Positions 322-23,158 of a stretch of DNA of 32,000 nt are shown here, in pieces. The stretch is from Nitratidesulfovibrio vulgaris str. Hildenborough. GTDB taxonomy: Bacteria; Desulfobacterota; Desulfovibrionia; Desulfovibrionales; Desulfovibrionaceae. The position numbers and the translations under genes were made by a program. Position 1 is the first letter of the stretch, and each line of letters starts with the position of its first letter. A model generated the notes under the pieces. It was not told the DNA's origin and searched no databases. It saw only the letters and a program-made list of their open reading frames with translations. Where the stretch lies: the NCBI RefSeq assembly GCF_000195755.1, contig NC_002937.3, positions 840,001 to 872,000 of the forward strand, read 5' to 3'.

Positions 322-2331
322 TCAGGCGGTGCGCATGGACTTGATGATGTCTCCAAGCCCCGTGGCTTGCCCGCGAAGTCGTTCCAGCTCCTCACGCAGC
401 CGGGTCATGCCCTCGGCGTTGTCAGCCGCACTGCCGCGTATCTCGTCGGTGGAACGGGCTATCTGCTCACTGGCTGCAGACTGCTGTTCAGCGGCGGTGG
501 CTATGGCCCGCACCTGGTCGGCGGTCTCGGCAGTCATGCCTACGATGGAACGCAGGGCCTCGCCCGCGCCCGAAGCCAGTTGCGTGGTCTTCTCCACCTC
601 GGTGGCGGTGGACTGGGCCGTTGCAAGGCTGTGCCGTGCGCTGGTCTGTATGGCGCGGATGAAGTCTTCGACTTCGCGGGTGGCGGTCATGGTCTTTTCG
701 GCCAGTTTGCGCACTTCGTCGGCCACCACGGCGAAGCCTCGCCCCGCGTCGCCAGCCCGTGCCGTTTCGATGGCGGCGTTGAGTGCCAGCAGGTTGGTCT
801 GGTCGGCGATGTCGCCGATGACGGCGATGATGCGTCCGATGCCCTCGGCCTGCTTGCCGAGGTCGTCCATGGCCTCGCCAAGGCGGGTCGCGTTGTCGCT
901 GACGCCTTCGATGGCGTCCAGTGCCTGCATGACGACATCGGCCCCGCGGTCGGCATGGTTGCGCGCCATTTCGGCACTTCCGGCTGCGGCGGCTGCCGAC
1001 CTTGCCACTTCAAGCACCGAGGCGTTCATCTCTTCGACGGCGACGGCGACTTCAGAGGTGCGTTGCTGTTGCGAGACCGCCCGTGTGAGCGATGCCTCGA
1101 CCTCTTCACCGATGCTGCCGGTGGTGGTGTTCAACTCCCGTTCTGTCTTGCCTGCGGCGTCTGCGGCCTCGGCGAGATGGGCGTTATGGCGGTGCAACTG
1201 TTCCTGCTGGTTGCGGAGTGCCGTCAGGTCGAAGCACGAGGTGAGCAGGCCGCGCAGCGAACGGTCCTCGCCCAAGACGGGCGCGACGGTGACGACCTGA
1301 AGGCTGCCGTCTGCGAAGGTCATCTCATCTTCGCGCGTCATGCCATCGTCCTGCGCCCTCTGAAGCAGCGCAAGCAACTCTGATGATGTCACGACCTGTC
1401 GCACGGGCAATCCGCTTTCCGGGGCCGTGGTGGCGCACTTGGCGATGGCTGCGAAGGGCTGGTTCCACCATGTGGCCCTTCCTTCAGCATCCACGAGAAG
1501 GCAGGGCTGCGGCAGCGCGGTCAGTACGCCACGCGCGAAGGCCACACGTTCGCGCAGGTCGTGCACCATGCGCTCAAGCGATTCGACAAGCACCGCCACT
1601 TCTCCGCAGGTATTGCGCAGCATCAGCGGAGTGTGGTCGCCCGCCGCGACCCTGCTGGCGTAGGCGGTGACAGCCGAAAGAGGACGCACGATGGAACGTG
1701 TGATGAAGAGGGCAAGAACGGCGAGAACCAGCGTGATGCTGCCCGCCAGCCACATGGCTGTCGTGCGGGCGCTGTCCAGTTCGTCACCGAAGGCGGTGTT
1801 GGCCGTTTCGAAATGGGCGTCCTTGCTCTCGACGATGCGGTTGAAGGTGCGGCGTGAGGCCTCGGCCAGCGGTGTCGCCTCCTTCTCGTAGGCCGGGTAG
1901 TGCGTGTGCCGTTCCGTATCAGGAACAGCGGCAAGGCGCTCGACAAAGGCGAGTCCACTCTCGGCGAAGGCGAGGGTCGAGCGTTCCGCCTCGGCGATGA
2001 GGGCTGCTTCGGCTGCGTCCACGGCACTCGCCCGCAGGGCCACGAAACCCTTGCGCATGGAGTCGATCGTCTTGCGCAGTCGGTCGGTGTCCTTGTCGAT
2101 GTCGCTTCCGAGCATGACGTTGCGGGTAAGGCGGCTGACATAGTTGAGGTCGCGACCGATGGCGAGTGTGGCGATTTTACCGTTGATGTCGTGCCGCGCC
2201 ATGAGACGGAAATGCTCACGTGCGTCACCAAGGGAATGTGTCATGAGCCATCCCACGGCAAGGACGGCTATGACCGCGCAGAGCGCGAGAAGATGGATGC
2301 GGCAACGGATGGACAGGTTACACTTGGTCAT
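322..2331 (-). CDS. methyl-accepting chemotaxis protein (2 TM, periplasmic sensor, HAMP, PAS-like linker, MA signalling domain)
   Basis: 669-aa ORF. It has an N-terminal TM ([17 protein letters not shown]), a second TM ([19 protein letters not shown]) followed by a HAMP-like segment, and the conserved MCP hairpin core near the C-terminus ([38 protein letters not shown]). Confidence 0.9.
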
Positions 2332-2514
2332 TCAGGGCTCCGGAGGGCATGTCGGTGTTCACTGGGCAGTCATGGTCTTCCGGTGGCGGTTGCGTCGCTG
2401 TGCGTGACCGTCATCGGGAGACCTCGGGTTTCGGGTTGGGGCAGCGGGAAGGCAACAGACTGATGATGGGGCAATCGAGATAGCCCCGTAGGTTTGATGC
2501 CGGAATGTCATATC

Positions 2515-2530
2515 AGCAAGAGCAGTGCCA
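2515..2530 (-). promoter_or_regulatory. sigma54 (RpoN) -24/-12 promoter, exact consensus TGGCAC-N5-TTGCT
   Basis: The reverse complement of 2515..2530 reads TGGCACTGCTCTTGCT. It is intergenic, in the correct orientation, and ~185 nt upstream of the MCP start codon at 2331. Confidence 0.6.
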
Positions 2531-2668
2531 TTCTTGTTTCGGGTGTCGCCTCTATCTTGACGTGTGGTTGCAGGGGCCGGAGTCGCCGGAGATACGGAGG
2601 CTGTTCCTGTACGGCCCGCAGAGGAGGGGCTGGTGTGCTGTAATGGAACATCGCTCGACCATAATCGA

Positions 2669-2700
2669 ACAGGGGCCTCCCGTTGTCGGAAGGCCCCTGT
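2669..2700 (-). terminator. intrinsic terminator-like hairpin after the ABC permease gene
   Basis: The minus-strand RNA reads ACAGGGGCCTTCC-GACAACG-GGAGGCCCCTGT (about 13 bp) followed by UUCGAUUAUGG. It lies 27 nt downstream of the permease stop at 2727. Confidence 0.6.
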
Positions 2701-2726
2701 ATCTGGCGATGGGATTCCGGTCGGTG

Positions 2727-4517
2727 TCACATGCGGAGATTGATCTTCTCCGGCGAAAGCCTGCGTTCAAGGCGGGCGGCGTAGACCGACATCGACCAGC
2801 AGCAGATGAAGTACAGGAAGGCGACGGTGCCGTAGATTTCCATGGGGTAGACCATGAGGCGGTTGTTGATGCCCTGCGCCACGAAGGTGAGTTCAAGCAC
2901 GCCCAGCACGAACGCCAGCGAGGTGTCCTTGAAGATGGCGATGAACTGCCCCACGATGGCGGGAATCATCTGCTTGAGCGCCTGCGGCAGGATGATGCGC
3001 CGCATGGTCTGAACGAAGGTGAGTCCGGTCGAGTACGCCGCCTCGACCTGTCCCGCAGGAATGTTCTGGATGCCAGCCCGCACGATTTCGGCAAGGTAGG
3101 CACCCGTGAACAGTGTCAGGGCGATGGTCGCCGACCAGAACACGTTGAAGAACGTGTTGAACAGCACGGGAATGAAGAAATAGATCCAGAAGATGACGAT
3201 GATAAGCGGGTTGCCGCGTATCAGCTCGATATACAGCAGGCAGGGGATGCGGCAGATGCGGTTGTCTGATGTGCGGCCGATGCCCACGACGAGACCGATG
3301 AAGAAACTCACGCTGATGGCGATGACCGCCATGAGCAGCGAATAGGCAAGGCCGCCAAGCCCCATGAAGAGTTCATCGGACTGCCCGTTGGGGAAGTGCC
3401 ATATGAGCAGCGTACGCAGGTTGTCGGCGATGACGCCCCAGTTGAAGTTGTAGAGTCCCCGCGCCGTGACGAAGAGAAGCCCGCCCAGCGCGAGGATGAA
3501 TGCTCCCTTGCACAGAAGGCTGGCACCCTTGCCCGCCATCTGCATGGCGACACGCATGGTCGCCATGGCGGGTGAATAGGTCGCGCTCGTCGCTGCGCGG
3601 CGTCTGCGGCGCAGGGCGCGTCCGATGGGGCGCACGAACACGCGCCGGATGAGGCTGACGGGCAGCAGCACGGCGTCCACGAACATGACGGATAGCGACC
3701 GCTTGGGAGCGGTGTCGAGACGCATCTTGCCGTTGACGCCGTTGAGGATGAACGAGATGAGCAGCGACAGCGAGAGATAGAGGACGGTGGCGGCGGATGT
3801 CGCCTCGAAACCCTTGAAGGTGAGCGATTCGACCTGTTGCGACTGCCATGTGAGTTCGGCCACACCCACGACCATGGCCAGCGACGAGTTCTTCATGTTG
3901 TTGAGGAACTCGCTGCCCAGCGGCGGGATGATGGCCCTGAAGGCCATGGGCAGGATGATGGTGCGCAGCACCTGCACGTAGTTGAGCCCCGACGAGTAGG
4001 CGGCTTCAAGCAGCCCCTTCGGGATGGACTGGAGACCGGCGCGGATGACTTCCGCCATGAACGCGCTGGTGTACACCGAAAGCCCGATGGTGGCGCACCA
4101 GAATTCGAAGTTGCCGGTGAAGAGCAGTTCGCGGATGTTTTCCGGGAGTATGGCCGGAAAGGCGAAATACCAGAAGAACAGCTGCACCAGCAGCGGCGTG
4201 TTGCGGAAGAACTCCACGACGGCGGTGGCGGTGAGGCGCAGCGGTGCAAAGAGCGACAGGCGCGCTATGCCGAGAACGGTGCCAAGGCCGAGGGCCAGTG
4301 CGGAACTGATGAGCGAGATACGGACCGTGACACCAAGCCCCTTGAGAATCTCGAGACCGAGATGCGTACCGTAGGTGGTGTTCCGGGTGAAGAGGATATC
4401 CCACTGGAACTGGTAGCCGAAATCGAAGACCCAGCCCCAGTAGTAGACGGCGAGCAGGGTGATGGAACACAGTACGAGGTACTGTACCCATGTCTTGTCC
4501 AGCCAGTATCGGATCAT
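2727..4517 (-). CDS. amino-acid ABC transporter permease, two fused His/Glu/Gln/Arg-opine family permease domains
   Basis: There are two tandem permease modules, each with an EAA loop (LEAAYSSGLNYVQVLRTIILP and VEAAYSTGLTFVQTMRRIILP), joined by an Arg-rich linker (RALRRRRRAATSA). I chose the ATG at 4517. The ORF-track TTG at 4559 lies inside a 12-bp hairpin stem and remains an alternative start. Confidence 0.88.
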   Translation of the reverse strand: MIRYWLDKTWVQYLVLCSITLLAVYYWGWVFDFGYQFQWDILFTRNTTYGTHLGLEILKGLGVTVRISLISSALALGLGTVLGIARLSLFAPLRLTATAVVEFFRNTPLLVQLFFWYFAFPAILPENIRELLFTGNFEFWCATIGLSVYTSAFMAEVIRAGLQSIPKGLLEAAYSSGLNYVQVLRTIILPMAFRAIIPPLGSEFLNNMKNSSLAMVVGVAELTWQSQQVESLTFKGFEATSAATVLYLSLSLLISFILNGVNGKMRLDTAPKRSLSVMFVDAVLLPVSLIRRVFVRPIGRALRRRRRAATSATYSPAMATMRVAMQMAGKGASLLCKGAFILALGGLLFVTARGLYNFNWGVIADNLRTLLIWHFPNGQSDELFMGLGGLAYSLLMAVIAISVSFFIGLVVGIGRTSDNRICRIPCLLYIELIRGNPLIIVIFWIYFFIPVLFNTFFNVFWSATIALTLFTGAYLAEIVRAGIQNIPAGQVEAAYSTGLTFVQTMRRIILPQALKQMIPAIVGQFIAIFKDTSLAFVLGVLELTFVAQGINNRLMVYPMEIYGTVAFLYFICCWSMSVYAARLERRLSPEKINLRM

Positions 4518-4546
4518 GTGAGGCGCCGTGTGCTTGTGCCGTTGGT

Positions 4547-4582
4547 GGAAGAAGCGCAAGCCCGGTCGAGCCGGGCTTGCGC
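4547..4582 (-). terminator. intercistronic hairpin or partial terminator between the binding-protein and permease genes
   Basis: A perfect 12-bp stem, GCGCAAGCCCGG / CCGGGCTTGCGC (4554-4565 and 4571-4582), has a 5-nt loop. On the minus-strand RNA it is followed by UUCUUCC. Confidence 0.55.
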
Positions 4583-4605
4583 GGTTCTAGCCTGTACGGT
4601 GGCGG

Positions 4606-5433
4606 TTAGGGCCACATTTCGATCTGACCGGCGAGGGGCATTTCGAAGGGAGTGCCGGGGCCGTACCACTTGTTGTAGATGGTCTTGTAGGTGCCGTCCT
4701 TCCACATGTCCTGCAGGGCGGCGTTCACGGCGTCACGCAGGGCGGAGTCGTCCTGCGGCATGGCGATGCCGTAGGGCTCTTCGGCGAGGAAGTTGCCCAC
4801 CAGTTCGAACTTGCCGGGTTCCTTCGCGGAGTAGCCCACGAGGATGGAGGCGTCGGTCGACCAGCCGGCCACGCGACCCATCTGCAGAGCCTGGAAGCAC
4901 TCGGACTCCTTCTGGAAGGAGATGACGCTCTGGTCGGGGTTGGGGTCACCGGCTTCCTTGAGGGCGCGCTTCACGTTCACTTCGGACGTGGTGCCCTGCA
5001 TGGTGGCGATCTTCTTGCCCACCATGTCCTTCACGGACTTGAACTGGCCCTTCTTGGCGAGGACCTTCTGACCGTCGAAGAAGTAGGTGATGGAGAAGTC
5101 GACCGACTTGTCGCGTTCACGGGTGTGGGTCATGTTCGACACGGAGATGTCGACGCGGCCCTGCTGGACGTAGGCGATGCGGGTCTTGTTGTTGACCTGC
5201 ACACGCTCGATGTCCACGCCCATGCGCTTGGCGATTTCGGTGGCGATGTCGTAGTCGAAGCCGCCCCATTCGCCCTTCTCGTTGTAGAAGCCGCCGGGGA
5301 TGGAGTCGGTCATGAGGCCGACGCGGATCTTCTTGTCCTTCATCACGTTGTCATAGGCGGGGCCGGCAAGGGCCGCAGAGCCGGTGAAGACCAGAAAGGC
5401 CGCGGCAAGGGCGATGATCTTTCCAAGACGCAT
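4606..5433 (-). CDS. amino-acid ABC transporter substrate-binding protein (family 3 SBP)
   Basis: 275 aa with a signal peptide (MRLGKIIALAAAFLVFTGSAALA) and polar amino-acid SBP-like sequence (GFDYDIATEIAKRMG, KIATMQGTTSE). There is a GGGAG SD upstream of the ATG. Confidence 0.92.
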   Translation of the reverse strand: MRLGKIIALAAAFLVFTGSAALAGPAYDNVMKDKKIRVGLMTDSIPGGFYNEKGEWGGFDYDIATEIAKRMGVDIERVQVNNKTRIAYVQQGRVDISVSNMTHTRERDKSVDFSITYFFDGQKVLAKKGQFKSVKDMVGKKIATMQGTTSEVNVKRALKEAGDPNPDQSVISFQKESECFQALQMGRVAGWSTDASILVGYSAKEPGKFELVGNFLAEEPYGIAMPQDDSALRDAVNAALQDMWKDGTYKTIYNKWYGPGTPFEMPLAGQIEMWP

Positions 5434-5530: not shown

Positions 5531-6262
5531 CTAGTGCGTGAGTATCTTGCTGAGGAACTCGCGCGAACGCTCGTGCTGGGGATTGTTGAAGAAGGCGTCG
5601 GGCGTGTTCTGTTCGACCAGTATGCCCTGGTCCATGAAGATGACGCGGTCGGCCACTTCGCGGGCGAACCCCATTTCGTGCGTCACGCAGACCATGGTCA
5701 TGCCCTCGCGGGCGAGTTGACGCATGACGTCGAGAACTTCGTTGATCATTTCGGGGTCGAGGGCGGAGGTCGGTTCGTCGAAGAGCATGATGCGCGGCTT
5801 CATGGCGAGACCGCGTGCGATGGCCACACGCTGCTGCTGCCCGCCTGACAGCTGCCCCGGGTACGCACCTGCCTTGTCGGGGATGTTCACCTTCTCGAGC
5901 AGTTCCATGGCAGTACGCTCCGCCTCGGCACGGGGGATGTTCCGTACGAGGGTGGGCGCCAGCGTGATGTTCTCCAGTACGGTCATGTGCGGGTACAGGT
6001 TGAACTGCTGGAATACGAAACCCACCTCGGCCCTGAGCAGGGTGAGGTTGGTGCGCGGTGCGTTGATGTCTATGCCGTCGACGACGATGTTGCCTTTCTG
6101 GATGGCTTCGAGACGGTTGATGCAGCGGATGAGCGTGCTCTTTCCGGAGCCGCTCGGCCCGCAGATGACGACCACTTCGCCCTGGGCGATGTCGAGATTG
6201 ATGTCATTGAGCACGTGCAGACCGCTCGGGTACCACTTGTGCACATGTTCGAAGTGGATCAC
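5531..6262 (-). CDS. amino-acid ABC transporter ATP-binding protein (GlnQ/HisP-like)
   Basis: Walker A (GPSGSGKST), ABC signature ([13 protein letters not shown]) and Walker B ([12 protein letters not shown]) are all present. The start is GTG at 6260-6262, preceded by GGAG. Confidence 0.95.
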
Positions 6263-6504
6263 GTGATGCTCCGTTCTGTTCGGTGAGGGGAAAAGGCCCC
6301 CGCTCCCGTGTAGCAGAACGGTTCCCGGAGCACAAGACGCGATGTGGTCGGCTTTACAAAACTGTCATTTGCGGGGTCTGATGCCGCGACCATGCTCGTC
6401 AGGGGGAATGCGGCCCGCCATCCGATTGGTCGTACAATCAGATGGTTGACGAGGGTAGGTGCCCATGCCGTTTTTCCTGAGAGGAAGGTGTTATTTCAAA
6501 AACG

Positions 6505-7872
6505 TCAAGACGGAGGGTCGCTGTAGGGGAGCTCGAACCAGAACACGTTACCGCAGACATCATGGTGGTAGCCCGTATGTCCGCCGTGCAGGTCGACGAT
6601 TTCGCGCACGAAATGCAGCCCGTGTCCTGTGCCGTATTCGCCTGTGGTGTTGCGTCCACGAAAGTCGGGTTCGAAGAGGTGAGGTACGTCGGCGGCATCG
6701 ACAGGCGGTCCGCTTGTGCACACCTCGACGCGTACCGCGGGTTTCCCCTCTCCGAAGGCATTCTCCACGAACACGATACGGCAGCACATGGTGAGGCTTT
6801 CGTCATCCGGGTCGGGGCGGGTGTACTTGACGGCGTTGGAAAGCAGGTTCGCGATGACCTGACTGATGAGCCCCGTATCGGCAAGCACCAGACGCGGTGT
6901 GTCATCGTCGTAGAGGGGCATGCAGACCTTCACGCCCTTCTCCTCGAGTCTGCCCTTGAAGCGCTCGACCTGCGGCAGCACTACGCGTTGCAGCAGGTCG
7001 ATGTGGCTCTTCTGGAGCACATAGTGCCCCTGATCGAAATGGCTCTGTCGCAACAGGGTCTCGAGAAACATGCTCGACTGCTGGAAGTGCCTGTATATCT
7101 CACTGTACTGTTCTTCAAGGCGCTCATGGAGATAGCCGAGCTGATGCATCGCCTCGGCAAGGACGTTGGTGCTGGAGCAGTCTCCATGCAACAAGGTTTC
7201 ACGCACCTGTGACATGGACTGGATCTTGCCTTCAAGCTGTCTGAAAAGAAGCTTGAAATACATGTTCGGCACGATGACATTGTGCCCTATGTCGTGGACA
7301 AGGCTGCGTATGAAGCGAATGTGCTCGCGGTTCTTGAAGAACATGAGCTTGTTGTGCAACTGGAAGCCGACCCTGTTCGCATACTTTTGCAGATACAGTA
7401 TCTGGTGGTCGGTGAGGGGCTGACGCGGATGCACGACAAGCATCCCGAGTGCATCGCCCACCGGAGTCACGGGCAGGCTCGACCTCTCTGCACTGCGCCC
7501 CCTGACAGGAATACGGTATTCGCCATCCCGGAAGGCGGGCTGTTCTGCAAGTTCACCCGGTAGTGGAGGTGTCGCCGTGGTCGGTCCGAGGTCGGGTGAG
7601 CGCCGGACAAGACTGCCTGAAGGGTCGAGCGTATAGAGTTCGGCTTCAAGGTCGAAGAACTGTTTGAGCACCAGTACGGCCAACGAGTAGAGGTCTTCGA
7701 GAGAGTCGAATTCCTGGGCGAGGTCGAAGAATACATTGAGGGCGCACGTCTGGCGAGGGCTGAAACCGTAGCTGCCGTAGTCCGAGACCTTGGCCCCGAT
7801 ACGTTCGGCGACGGAGGCATAGCCTGCCGCCTGTGCGGTGATGGCGCGGCCCTGTTCGGTGAGGCTGCTCAT
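6505..7872 (-). CDS. cytoplasmic sensor histidine kinase (GAF-like N-terminal region, HisKA + HATPase_c), no adjacent response regulator
   Basis: H-box (SLVHDIGHNV), N-box (NLLSNAVKYT) and G-box (GTGHGLHFVREIVDLHGG) are present, and there is no TM segment. The start was moved to the ATG at 7872 (MSSLTEQ), which has an AAGGAG SD 7 nt upstream. Confidence 0.85.
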   Translation of the reverse strand: MSSLTEQGRAITAQAAGYASVAERIGAKVSDYGSYGFSPRQTCALNVFFDLAQEFDSLEDLYSLAVLVLKQFFDLEAELYTLDPSGSLVRRSPDLGPTTATPPLPGELAEQPAFRDGEYRIPVRGRSAERSSLPVTPVGDALGMLVVHPRQPLTDHQILYLQKYANRVGFQLHNKLMFFKNREHIRFIRSLVHDIGHNVIVPNMYFKLLFRQLEGKIQSMSQVRETLLHGDCSSTNVLAEAMHQLGYLHERLEEQYSEIYRHFQQSSMFLETLLRQSHFDQGHYVLQKSHIDLLQRVVLPQVERFKGRLEEKGVKVCMPLYDDDTPRLVLADTGLISQVIANLLSNAVKYTRPDPDDESLTMCCRIVFVENAFGEGKPAVRVEVCTSGPPVDAADVPHLFEPDFRGRNTTGEYGTGHGLHFVREIVDLHGGHTGYHHDVCGNVFWFELPYSDPPS

Positions 7873-8083
7873 GCACGGGCTCCTTGAAAGGTTGCCGTTT
7901 GAAGCAGTATGCATCATTTAAAGGTATGCGCCAAGGCGTTACCGAAGCCTGCCTGATGCTTTTCGATGGCAGTGGTTTTGGCTGGAACTCTGTCAATGTC
8001 TTATTTTCTAACGTATTGACGTGCGTATCTCTAACATGGCAACAGTTTATAGTTAACAGTTGATTGTCGGGGGGGGAGGTCGC

Positions 8084-20982: not shown

Positions 20983-21933
20983 TCAGAAGAAATAGCCGGC
21001 GACGTAGCGTGTCGCCGTGGTGGCGAGCACGACAGCGAGCATCCACTTGATGAGGCGCGCAGGCACATGCTTCTGGCACCGTGCGCCAAGATACATGCCG
21101 CACATCCCCCCGAGGCCGAGCATGAGGCCGAGCATCCAGTCGGGGGATACAGAGAGGGCCGGATAGAACGGGGCGATGCCCATGTAGAACAGGACGCCTG
21201 CGATGGATGTGACGAAGGTGCCCATGAGTGCCGCCCCGGCTACGGTATGCACCGGAAGCCCGAAGACGGAGATGAGGAACGGGGCGATGATGGCGCCGCC
21301 GCCAATCCCGTACGTGCCGCCTATCATGCCCACCACGAGGCTGAGGATGAACGTGCCCTGCACCGGGAAGGTATGGGGTTCACCATAGAATTCGTATTCG
21401 ACGGTGCGCCATGTGCGACGGACGACACGGGTCGTGGGCAGGCTTTCGGGGGCGACGCCCAGCGCCTCGGCCTGGGCGCGGTGGCGGGCGGCAAGTTCGG
21501 CGAATCGTTCGTCAGCACGTGCCTTGCCATTGCGTGCGGGGCGCAGCAGGTCGCGTACCATGCGGAAACCGATGTACAGCAGTACCAGCCCCACGAAGAG
21601 CTTGAAGTCGCGGGCATCGGGAAGCCACCTCACCCGGAGGAAGGCGCCCACGAGTACACCGGGCAGTGTGCCCGCGACGACCACCCATACGAGAGGCCAG
21701 ACCATGCGTCCTTCGCGGATGTAGCGGGCGACACCGCTAGGGATGGCGACGATATTGTAGAACTGGTTCGTGGCGCTCACCGAGGGGGCGGTGTAGCCAA
21801 GCACGGACATCTGGAAGGGCAGGAGCAGAAACGCTCCGGAGATGCCTCCCATGGAGGCGAAGAACGATACGACGAAGGCGACACAGACGGGAAGCAGGGG
21901 ATTGGCTTCGATGCCGGCGGTGGGAAAGTACAT
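20983..21933 (-). CDS. TauE/SafE family anion (sulfite/sulfonate-type) exporter
   Basis: 316 aa from the ATG at 21933, with a GGAGG SD. It is a polytopic membrane protein with the duplicated 4-TM TauE pattern (FFASMGGISGAFLLLP ... VVGMIGGTYGIGGGAIIAPFL). Confidence 0.83.
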   Translation of the reverse strand: MYFPTAGIEANPLLPVCVAFVVSFFASMGGISGAFLLLPFQMSVLGYTAPSVSATNQFYNIVAIPSGVARYIREGRMVWPLVWVVVAGTLPGVLVGAFLRVRWLPDARDFKLFVGLVLLYIGFRMVRDLLRPARNGKARADERFAELAARHRAQAEALGVAPESLPTTRVVRRTWRTVEYEFYGEPHTFPVQGTFILSLVVGMIGGTYGIGGGAIIAPFLISVFGLPVHTVAGAALMGTFVTSIAGVLFYMGIAPFYPALSVSPDWMLGLMLGLGGMCGMYLGARCQKHVPARLIKWMLAVVLATTATRYVAGYFF

Positions 21934-21942
21934 GGGCACCTC

Positions 21943-22038
21943 CACGATTATTTGAGGCACGAAAATATCATGTATCGTGTCAGTGAATCTAGCGTACAAG
22001 CCCGAACTTGTCACGAGGTTTCCGCGCCCTGTATCATG
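21943..22038. promoter_or_regulatory. repeated TATCRTG / TGTATCRTG boxes in the divergent TauE / TOBE-regulator intergenic region
   Basis: TATCATG is at 21966-21972, TATCGTG at 21973-21979, and TATCATG at 22032-22038. The last two share the 9-mer TGTATCRTG. An inverted partial copy, CACGAT, is at 21943-21948. Confidence 0.4.
22008..22037 (+). promoter_or_regulatory. sigma70-like promoter TTGTCA-N18-TATCAT for the recombinase-fold/TOBE gene
   Basis: The -35 is at 22008-22013 and the -10 at 22032-22037 with TG immediately upstream. The -10 coincides with one TGTATCATG box. Confidence 0.4.
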
Positions 22039-22087
22039 CCGCCAACGTCTTTGCCGCCACACGGTTCATCGGAATAACGGAGATTTC

Positions 22088-23158
22088 ATGGAAGGTTCCC
22101 TCGAAACGCTTTTTGCCGGCGTCGCCTCAAGAGCCAATCCGGCAGGCATGCTCACCATTCCGGACGAGGTGCGTTGCCTCGATACCAACGACCTCGAAAA
22201 GCTCGAGTCCGCGTTCAGGGCATGGGTCGCCAAGGGACGAGGCGCAGGAGTCACGTTGGCACGCAGGCGTATTCTCGCTCTTTTCCTTCTCCTGCGGCAT
22301 ACGGGGGCACGTCTGGGAGAAGCCTCGGGTCTGGAGGGGCGGTCGCTTGTGCTTGAGAAGGGGCTGGTGAGGCTCGGCACGCCACCTCGCGATGTGCTCG
22401 TGGCGGAGACTGTGCTGGCAGAGATAGTGGGACTGGTCACCACGGGCGGAGGGCGTGAGTCGCCCGTGCTCCCGGAGTATCCCTTCGCGGTCGACCCGGG
22501 GCATGTGCGTCGCAAGTTCTACGCGTGCGCAGAGGCTGCGGGACTCGGGCGTGAGATGGGGTCACCATCGGTCTTGCGGCGTTCGCGGGCTGTGGAGTTG
22601 CTGCGGGGGGGGGTGCCTCTCCCCGCCGTCCAGCGGCTTCTGGGGCATGGCAATGCGGAACTCACCGCCGCCTATGTCGCCGTGCCGGATGACGCCATGC
22701 GTCGTATGGTGGGGGATGCCCTCGACAGGGAGCAGCGCAGAAGCAGTGCCCGCAACGCCTTCTTCGGCAGGGTAGAGGACGTCCGTATCGGGGATGTGCA
22801 GGCTTCAGTGCGTCTGCAGACACCGACCGGGCTCGAAGTGCTCGCCATCATCACCAATGACAGTCTCGAGGCCCTCGGTCTCGCACGGGGTGCCTATGCC
22901 CTCGCCGAGGTGAAGGCACCGTGGGTCGTACTGCAACGCGGTGAACACCCGCGCTCCAGTGCGGGCAACGTCTATCCGGGAGAGGTCGTCCGTGTCCGCA
23001 AGGGGGCTGTCTCGGCTGAGGTCATCGTGAGGCTCGATGCTGGAACGGAGGTCTGTGCCGTCCTCGCCGCTGACACTCTGGCGACGCTTGAACTGTGCGA
23101 CGGGGCTCATGTCTGGGTCGTGATCAATGCCCTCTCTGTCATCCTCAATGCCGTATAG
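22088..23158 (+). CDS. tyrosine-recombinase-fold (XerD-like) domain fused to two Mop/TOBE domains; TunR-like oxyanion-responsive regulator candidate
   Basis: 356 aa from the ATG at 22088, with a GGAG SD. Recombinase catalytic-domain boxes are present (LLLRHTGARLGEA; LLGHGNAELTAAYV), followed by two TOBE repeats (SSARNAFFGRVEDVRIGDVQASVRL.. and AGNVYPGEVVRVRKGAVSAEVIV..). Confidence 0.85.
   Translation: MEGSLETLFAGVASRANPAGMLTIPDEVRCLDTNDLEKLESAFRAWVAKGRGAGVTLARRRILALFLLLRHTGARLGEASGLEGRSLVLEKGLVRLGTPPRDVLVAETVLAEIVGLVTTGGGRESPVLPEYPFAVDPGHVRRKFYACAEAAGLGREMGSPSVLRRSRAVELLRGGVPLPAVQRLLGHGNAELTAAYVAVPDDAMRRMVGDALDREQRRSSARNAFFGRVEDVRIGDVQASVRLQTPTGLEVLAIITNDSLEALGLARGAYALAEVKAPWVVLQRGEHPRSSAGNVYPGEVVRVRKGAVSAEVIVRLDAGTEVCAVLAADTLATLELCDGAHVWVVINALSVILNAV

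Follow-up and report, generated by a model that had tools for sequence, protein, structure and literature searches.

What drives transcription of the chemoreceptor (MCP) gene DVU0750 of Nitratidesulfovibrio vulgaris str. Hildenborough (D. vulgaris in the following), and which protein activates its promoter? The question is raised by an exact match to the sigma54 -24/-12 consensus in the spacer in front of the gene. The DNA analysed here, referred to as the window, is 32,000 nt long, and its positions equal genome positions minus 840000, an offset inferred from the start of DVU0751 at 844517 in the DAP-chip tables, which is window position 4517. The gene order consists of a histidine kinase, an ABC ATPase, a solute-binding protein, a fused permease, the MCP, a LytTR response regulator, and an acetyl-CoA synthetase, and corresponds to the DVU0748-DVU0753 region (Table 1). 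The ATG at 2331 is taken as the true start of DVU0750 because a GGAG precedes it by 6 nt and because homologues can be aligned to the protein from the first residues on (MKCRLSIRARI / MSHRLSSVRARI). The spacer between permease and MCP covers positions 2332-2726 (395 nt), as the permease ORF ends at 2727 including its stop codon. An ORF at 2359..2730 (123 aa) in the spacer was considered as protein-coding and rejected, no family being found for it.

In the wider neighbourhood, an orphan histidine kinase (6505-7917, minus strand) without an adjacent response regulator is encoded immediately 5' of the amino-acid ABC operon, and its position is kept in a syntenic Nitratidesulfovibrio-like locus (L110, positions 3995-5401). 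Further along the window, a 393-aa ORF at 21977-23158 (plus strand) encodes two Mop/TOBE molybdate/tungstate-binding domains in addition to an N-terminal part resembling tyrosine recombinases, and it is divergent from and overlaps the ORF of a TauE/SafE-family membrane protein (20983..22062, minus strand). This 393-aa protein presumably resembles the TunR-type tungstate/molybdate regulators of sulfate reducers.

Table 1 Features of the DVU0750 locus in window coordinates, and sigma54 motifs upstream of homologous MCP genes (positions relative to the MCP start).
Feature	Position	Strand	Remarks
MCP gene DVU0750, 669 aa	322..2331	-	Weak TarH-like periplasmic domain, HAMP, PAS, MCP signalling domain
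Predicted 5' leader, ~173 nt	2332..2504	-	+1 predicted from -12 spacing
PhoB-box-like repeat CGTCGC-TGTG-CGTGAC	2393..2408	+	1 mismatch to YGTNAC-N4-YGTNAC; in leader, opposite strand
Published 19-mer AATGGCACTGCTCTTGCTG	2514-2532	-	2532-2331 = 201
Sigma54 -24/-12 element	2515..2530	-	GG 2529/2528, GC 2517/2516, exactly 10 nt apart
Candidate UAS, three DVU0118 half-site-like elements	2602..2672	-	TGTTCG 2672-2667, ATGTTCC 2651-2645, GGAACA 2607-2602
G+C-rich hairpin	2669..2700	-	27 nt past permease stop; 14-nt arms, 93% complementary; no clear T-run
DVU0118 DAP-chip peak	2675..2772 (genome 842675-842772)		log2R 2.16, FDR 0; mapping via inferred offset (PMC3333781)
Fused double amino-acid ABC permease DVU0751	2727..4559	-	Last gene, DVU0753-0751 operon
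DVU1949 sites for DVU0753	6353-6368; 6493-6508		ATGACAGTTTTGTAAA, -106; TTGACGTTTTTGAAAT, -246; exactly where Kazakov places them (PMC4641369)
Motif in L086/L110	-63		CGTGGCACGTCCCTTGCTC; fully syntenic: ABC operon, MCP, LytTR regulator, acs
Motif in L089	-82		GGTGGCATTTAATTTGCTT
Motif in L090	-92		CGTGGAACTTTTCTTGCTT
Motif in L092	-72		CGTGGAACGCTGGTTGCAG
Motif in L109	-130		TGTGGCACACTCGCTGCAC

Read as the reverse complement of the forward strand, positions 2515-2530 give TGGCAC-TGCTC-TTGCT (TGGCACTGCTCTTGCT). As noted in a preliminary description of the locus, this is an exact consensus with canonical spacing. It is the single match to TGGCACNNNNNTTGCW (TGGCAC-N5-TTGCW) on both strands of the 32-kb window. 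The same description had put the number of matches expected by chance below 0.1, and dinucleotide-preserving shuffles bear this out with a mean of 0.02 and at least one match in 2 of 100 shuffled sequences. When up to two mismatches are allowed, the consensus occurs at chance level in the window (15 matches seen vs 17.5 expected), and thus only the exact promoter site stands out. The site is intergenic, 201 nt 5' of the MCP ATG, and its placement in the spacer in MCP orientation, also described earlier, is borne out by the ORF boundaries at 2331 and 2727 on the same strand. With a position weight matrix (PWM) trained on the 86 remaining promoters of the published D. vulgaris sigma54 set, it scores 15.9 bits, the top value of the window, the catalogue median being 17.2 bits. 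The spacers of two near-identical strains differ at positions 2546 and 2490 of the window, and both of these SNPs leave the promoter untouched. The second- and third-best matches to the PWM in the window, CATGGACTGGATCTTGCCT at 7213-7231 (plus strand, 14.5 bits) and CATGGTACGCGACCTGCTG at 21544-21562 (minus strand, 12.6 bits), are both inside coding regions and probably due to chance.

A competing sigma70- or sigma28-type promoter, which the preliminary description had named, together with a TSS mapping elsewhere, as one finding that would speak against sigma54, was not detected in the spacer by sequence scan. No sigma70-like -35/-10 pair was found in 2200-2900 by a promoter scan, and the best spacer match to a sigma28-like TAAA-N14-16-GCCGATAA element carries mismatches at 4 of 12 positions. 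Enteric sigma28 (FliA) class-III chemoreceptor promoters likewise control an MCP gene, yet DVU0750 differs from them in being without a TAAA-N15-GCCGATAA-like element. In its core element and its GG/GC spacing, the site instead equals classical NtrC/glnAp2-type promoters, and an AAA+ activator is expected. Unlike those promoters, DVU0750 has no recognisable tandem palindromic enhancer or IHF site, the IHF consensus having no match with one mismatch or fewer near the promoter.

Judged by its sequence, the element at 2515-2530 is a sigma54 promoter on every count. It very probably functions as a sigma54 (RpoN)-dependent -24/-12 promoter transcribing DVU0750, with +1 near 2504 and with an enhancer-binding protein (EBP) encoded elsewhere; the TSS, the reliance on sigma54, and the choice of EBP are the parts of this best explanation that we infer. 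The sigma54 holoenzyme would form a closed complex on TGGCAC-N5-TTGCT and would fire only upon contact by an AAA+ EBP, encoded elsewhere in the genome, from an upstream site. Transcription of DVU0750 would then begin near window position 2504 and produce a leader of ~173 nt without evident structure.

The promoter is already known as a published prediction. In Kazakov et al. 2015 (BMC Genomics 16:919, PMC4641369, Additional file 6), DVU0750 is listed with AATGGCACTGCTCTTGCTG at -201, under Chemotaxis, and with a blank regulator field. The 19-mer, the offset, and the gene are identical to those found here, meaning that both are the same object, published in 2015 without an EBP. The catalogue admits only promoters that are conserved among Desulfovibrionales genomes or have 5'-RNA-seq support (PMC4641369). 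Its Table 2 reports sigma54 control of 19 flagellar and 2 chemotaxis operons in D. vulgaris, and chemotaxis genes are explicitly among the 23 sigma54 promoters without a UAS found (PMC4641369). In addition, the two DVU1949 sites that Kazakov et al. place upstream of DVU0753 match the window exactly. The promoter itself therefore adds nothing new, and that motility and chemotaxis genes are under sigma54 control has already been catalogued in the organism.

Conservation of the promoter was followed through the MCP sensor region, which has few relatives. The relatives' loci were gathered by exact-protein look-up and by scanning metagenome contigs with an alignment of the sensor domain. A full-length MCP alignment scan of genome contigs was discarded; it returned only paralogues (L005-L084), because its patterns came from the conserved signalling domain. 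Six relatives are of Desulfovibrionaceae type (G+C 56-67%; sensor region 35-51% identical). In five of these, a correctly oriented sigma54 motif scoring 11.8 bits or more precedes the MCP start by 63-130 nt. Conservation upstream of orthologous MCP genes, on which the preliminary description had staked its claim, is thus seen in most of these relatives. At the same threshold, the 87.5 kb of two-strand sequence of the relatives' loci contains 4 other matches, i.e., ~0.024 per 530-nt region, so that the co-occurrence of motif and MCP gene is far beyond chance. L085, the closest homologue (~51% identity), has no convincing sigma54 motif in its A+T-rich 325-nt spacer, where the best score is 8.2 bits, and a GG-N10-GC search of L085 was uninformative (214 matches vs 213 expected). 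The motif is likewise absent from more distant, low-G+C relatives.

Two observations were made alongside this comparison. At L085 2311-4000, the MCP is found directly 3' of a sCache histidine kinase and an NtrC-type sigma54 EBP. Furthermore, the 12-mer CATTCCGGCATC, which spans the predicted TSS (2496-2507, minus strand), is identical at L086 3969-3980 (plus strand), in spacers that are otherwise unalignable. In L086 it is located just 3' of the promoter, its distance from the -12 element differing by 7 nt, and by our own estimate the chance of a 12-nt identity between two post-promoter stretches is ~5e-4.

The position of +1 near 2504, and with it the leader of ~173 nt, follows from taking C2516 as -12. 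The length of ~170 nt given in the preliminary description thus stands, whereas its view of the leader as unusually long does not, because 15 of the 83 gene-relative catalogued sigma54 promoters of D. vulgaris (~18%) are at least 196 nt 5' of the start codon (PMC4641369). The leader has no Rfam match at E<0.1 and folds no better than shuffles (MFE -44.5 kcal/mol vs a mean of -45.9, z = 0.38), and a riboswitch, an attenuator, or an sRNA within it was rejected on these grounds. Its ORFs are trivial mini-ORFs only.

With four sigma54-driven ncRNAs catalogued in D. vulgaris (PMC4641369) and the promoter as far as 201 nt from the start codon, it could be speculated that the promoter yields a short non-coding or leader transcript and not the MCP mRNA. 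Such a transcript would have to end before the gene, and a consensus scan found no terminator-like site between 2504 and 2331, nor in the spacer as a whole; the leader also has neither excess structure nor an Rfam match. In the homologues, the promoter motif is nearer the MCP start codon, only 35-102 nt ahead, leaving leaders of that length. Among the sigma54 promoters of D. vulgaris, the distance in DVU0750 is at the long end but unremarkable, and a separate short transcript is highly improbable.

A different route of expression is suggested by PhoB (DVU1083), for which DAP-chip peaks at genome positions 842331-842816, listed as 'Dvu0750 MCP', were obtained in three replicates with an average log2R of 1.82 (PMC3333781). 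This PhoB pull-down of the spacer leaves room for a second, sigma70-type expression route. The sigma54 consensus would then contribute little, and DVU0750 would be expressed mainly from a sigma70-type promoter in the leader, possibly assisted by PhoB at the one-mismatch box found there, or by read-through from the ABC operon. The hairpin after the permease gene bears on the latter, as it is a terminator-like end of the ABC operon, yet is without a T-run and was not called by the terminator consensus scan. We consider expression by these routes rather improbable, given that no sigma70-like -35/-10 pair is found in the spacer and that conservation of the sigma54 motif across homologues would be hard to explain if the motif were idle. 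Moreover, the PhoB-like box has the wrong strand, and chance suffices to account for it (~0.1 expected; 8 one-mismatch matches in the window). DVU0750 is also absent from the authors' conservative PhoB target list (PMC3333781), as judged from its name occurring once in the supplement. The same PhoB list names the DNA upstream of six further MCP genes, i.e., DVU0668, DVU2309, DVU1884, DVU0645, DVU2317, and DVU2295 (PMC3333781), and PhoB peaks at MCP genes may reflect either a phosphate-chemotaxis link or sticky DNA.

If DVU0750 is transcribed from the sigma54 promoter, its activator is to be sought outside the window. Pfam scans detected no Sigma54_activat domain in any large ORF of the window, GAFTGA-like, GESGTGK, and ELFGH signatures are missing from its six frames, and neither RpoN nor an EBP gene is encoded in it. 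The preliminary description was therefore right in seeing no EBP here, and the distant EBP that it proposed agrees with the catalogue entry without an EBP and with the location of the nearest EBP gene, DVU0744, outside the window, ~7-9 kb beyond the MCP judging by the syntenic L110. Motifs of known EBPs were scanned as PWMs for DVU1063, DVU2894, and DVU1949 and as the heptamer TGTNACA for DVU0744. None of the three PWMs gave a score near its training range around the promoter, and the sites of DVU1063 and DVU2894 near it reached 8.3 bits at most, vs a training minimum of 14-17 bits. The DVU0744 heptamer gave single unconvincing matches 5' of the promoter, at 2725-2731 in the window and at 9920-9926 in L110, and the TGTGACA in the window may be explained by coding, because it overlaps the conserved permease stop codon.

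Quite possibly, the promoter is real and its activator is one of the EBPs other than DVU0118, i.e., DVUA0024, DVU2960, DVU0744, or the flagellar DVU1063/DVU2894, acting via an unrecognised or remote site. DVUA0024 or DVU2960, the two EBPs without a known regulon, or remote enhancers have been proposed for the 23 orphan promoters (PMC4641369). For DVU0744, the conserved location of a gene of its type near the MCP in L110 and the single TGTNACA shared by both loci are favourable, but the heptamer in the window coincides with the permease stop codon and, in the part of the supplement covered, no peak at 842xxx is given for DVU0744 in its blind DAP-chip (PMC3333781). For DVU1063/DVU2894, the lack of any site above 8.3 bits near the promoter is unfavourable. 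The absence of DVU0118 half-sites from L110 also argues for an EBP other than DVU0118.

As for DVU1949, a nitrogen EBP, its sites of the TTTACA-N4-TGTAAA type in the window score 20.6 and 16.5 bits and precede the gene for the ABC ATPase (5531..6262, minus strand). No sigma54 promoter was found in the 258-nt region upstream of that gene (best 0.7 bits), making them EBP sites without a sigma54 promoter of their own. The nearest co-oriented sigma54 promoter is that of DVU0750, 3.8 kb downstream, and it is unlikely that the sites serve as its remote enhancers over this distance.

DVU0118 is a sigma54-dependent two-component response regulator, whose published regulon is DVU0123-0121 alone and whose published motif is the 20-bp palindrome ATGTTCC-N6-GGAACAT. 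Its third-best DAP-chip peak, after two operon-proximal peaks (2.67), is the one at genome positions 842675-842772 (Rajeev et al. 2011, PMC3333781, Table S4), and this peak is 145-240 nt 5' of the -24 element. The annotation of the peak reads 'inside DVU0751, -1745', with 'no gene within 200 nt' given in addition, and the authors did not call it a target (PMC3333781). A link to DVU0750, if real, probably went uncalled because more than 200 nt separate the peak from the start codon of that gene, and because the peak had been placed in the 3' end of DVU0751.

The preliminary description had suggested looking for upstream palindromes of known EBP motifs, and the outcome is mixed: canonical sites were not found, while split DVU0118 half-sites are present with the DAP-chip peak adjacent to them. 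The canonical DVU0118 20-mer does not occur in the spacer at up to 3 mismatches. The half-site pair ATGTTCC-N37-GGAACA occurs once in the window vs 0.03 expected, as the result of a post hoc motif search, and three TGTTC/GAACA pentamers within 75 nt are seen in 0.08% of stretches of that size. Taken as a generic palindrome, the inverted repeat formed by the pair (I2, 2602-2650) is not significant, with 28 of 300 shuffles as good, and interest in it arose only from the match of its arms to the DVU0118 motif.

A comparison with the DVU0118-dependent promoter of DVU0123-DVU0121, a validated target, reveals both likenesses and differences. Both promoters are of the sigma54 type, strong DVU0118 DAP-chip peaks are found at both regions, and ATGTTCC starts 112 nt 5' of the 19-mer in DVU0123 vs 119 nt in DVU0750. 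DVU0123, however, has a contiguous 20-bp palindrome, whereas the half-sites of DVU0750 are 37 nt apart and accompanied by a third, degenerate copy. In DVU0750, moreover, ~75 nt separate the centre of the peak from ATGTTCC, and the syntenic orthologue L110 does not share the site, neither GTTCC nor GGAAC being found there in the 450 nt 5' of the promoter. We tentatively put forward DVU0118, encoded ~690 kb away, as the best candidate for the missing activator of DVU0750, acting via the split half-sites at 2602-2672, and we regard this assignment as possible but less likely than not.

Further features related to DVU0118 were noted in passing. The degenerate TGTTCG half-site overlaps the end (2669) of the 3' arm of the hairpin on the minus strand, and the hairpin is at the edge of the DVU0118 DAP-chip peak. 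A further sequence, CCGTTCCGTATCAGGAACAG at window positions 1909-1928 (plus strand), within the part coding for the MCP, has a GTTCC-N6-GGAAC core with canonical spacing and 3 mismatches overall, and it is located ~590 nt 3' of the predicted TSS.

The value of the present analysis is in an independent confirmation of the conservation of this promoter, in the removal of the idea of a specially long leader, and in offering DVU0118 as a candidate. DVU0118 is a specific and cheaply testable candidate for one of the 23 activator-less sigma54 promoters in a model sulfate reducer. If true, the chemoreceptor would be tied to the DVU0118/DVU0123 membrane-transport regulon, and half-sites set widely apart would be shown to suffice for the action of an EBP. 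Gaps in the regulome could then also be filled by going back to raw DAP-chip peaks and dropping the 200-nt gene-proximity rule.
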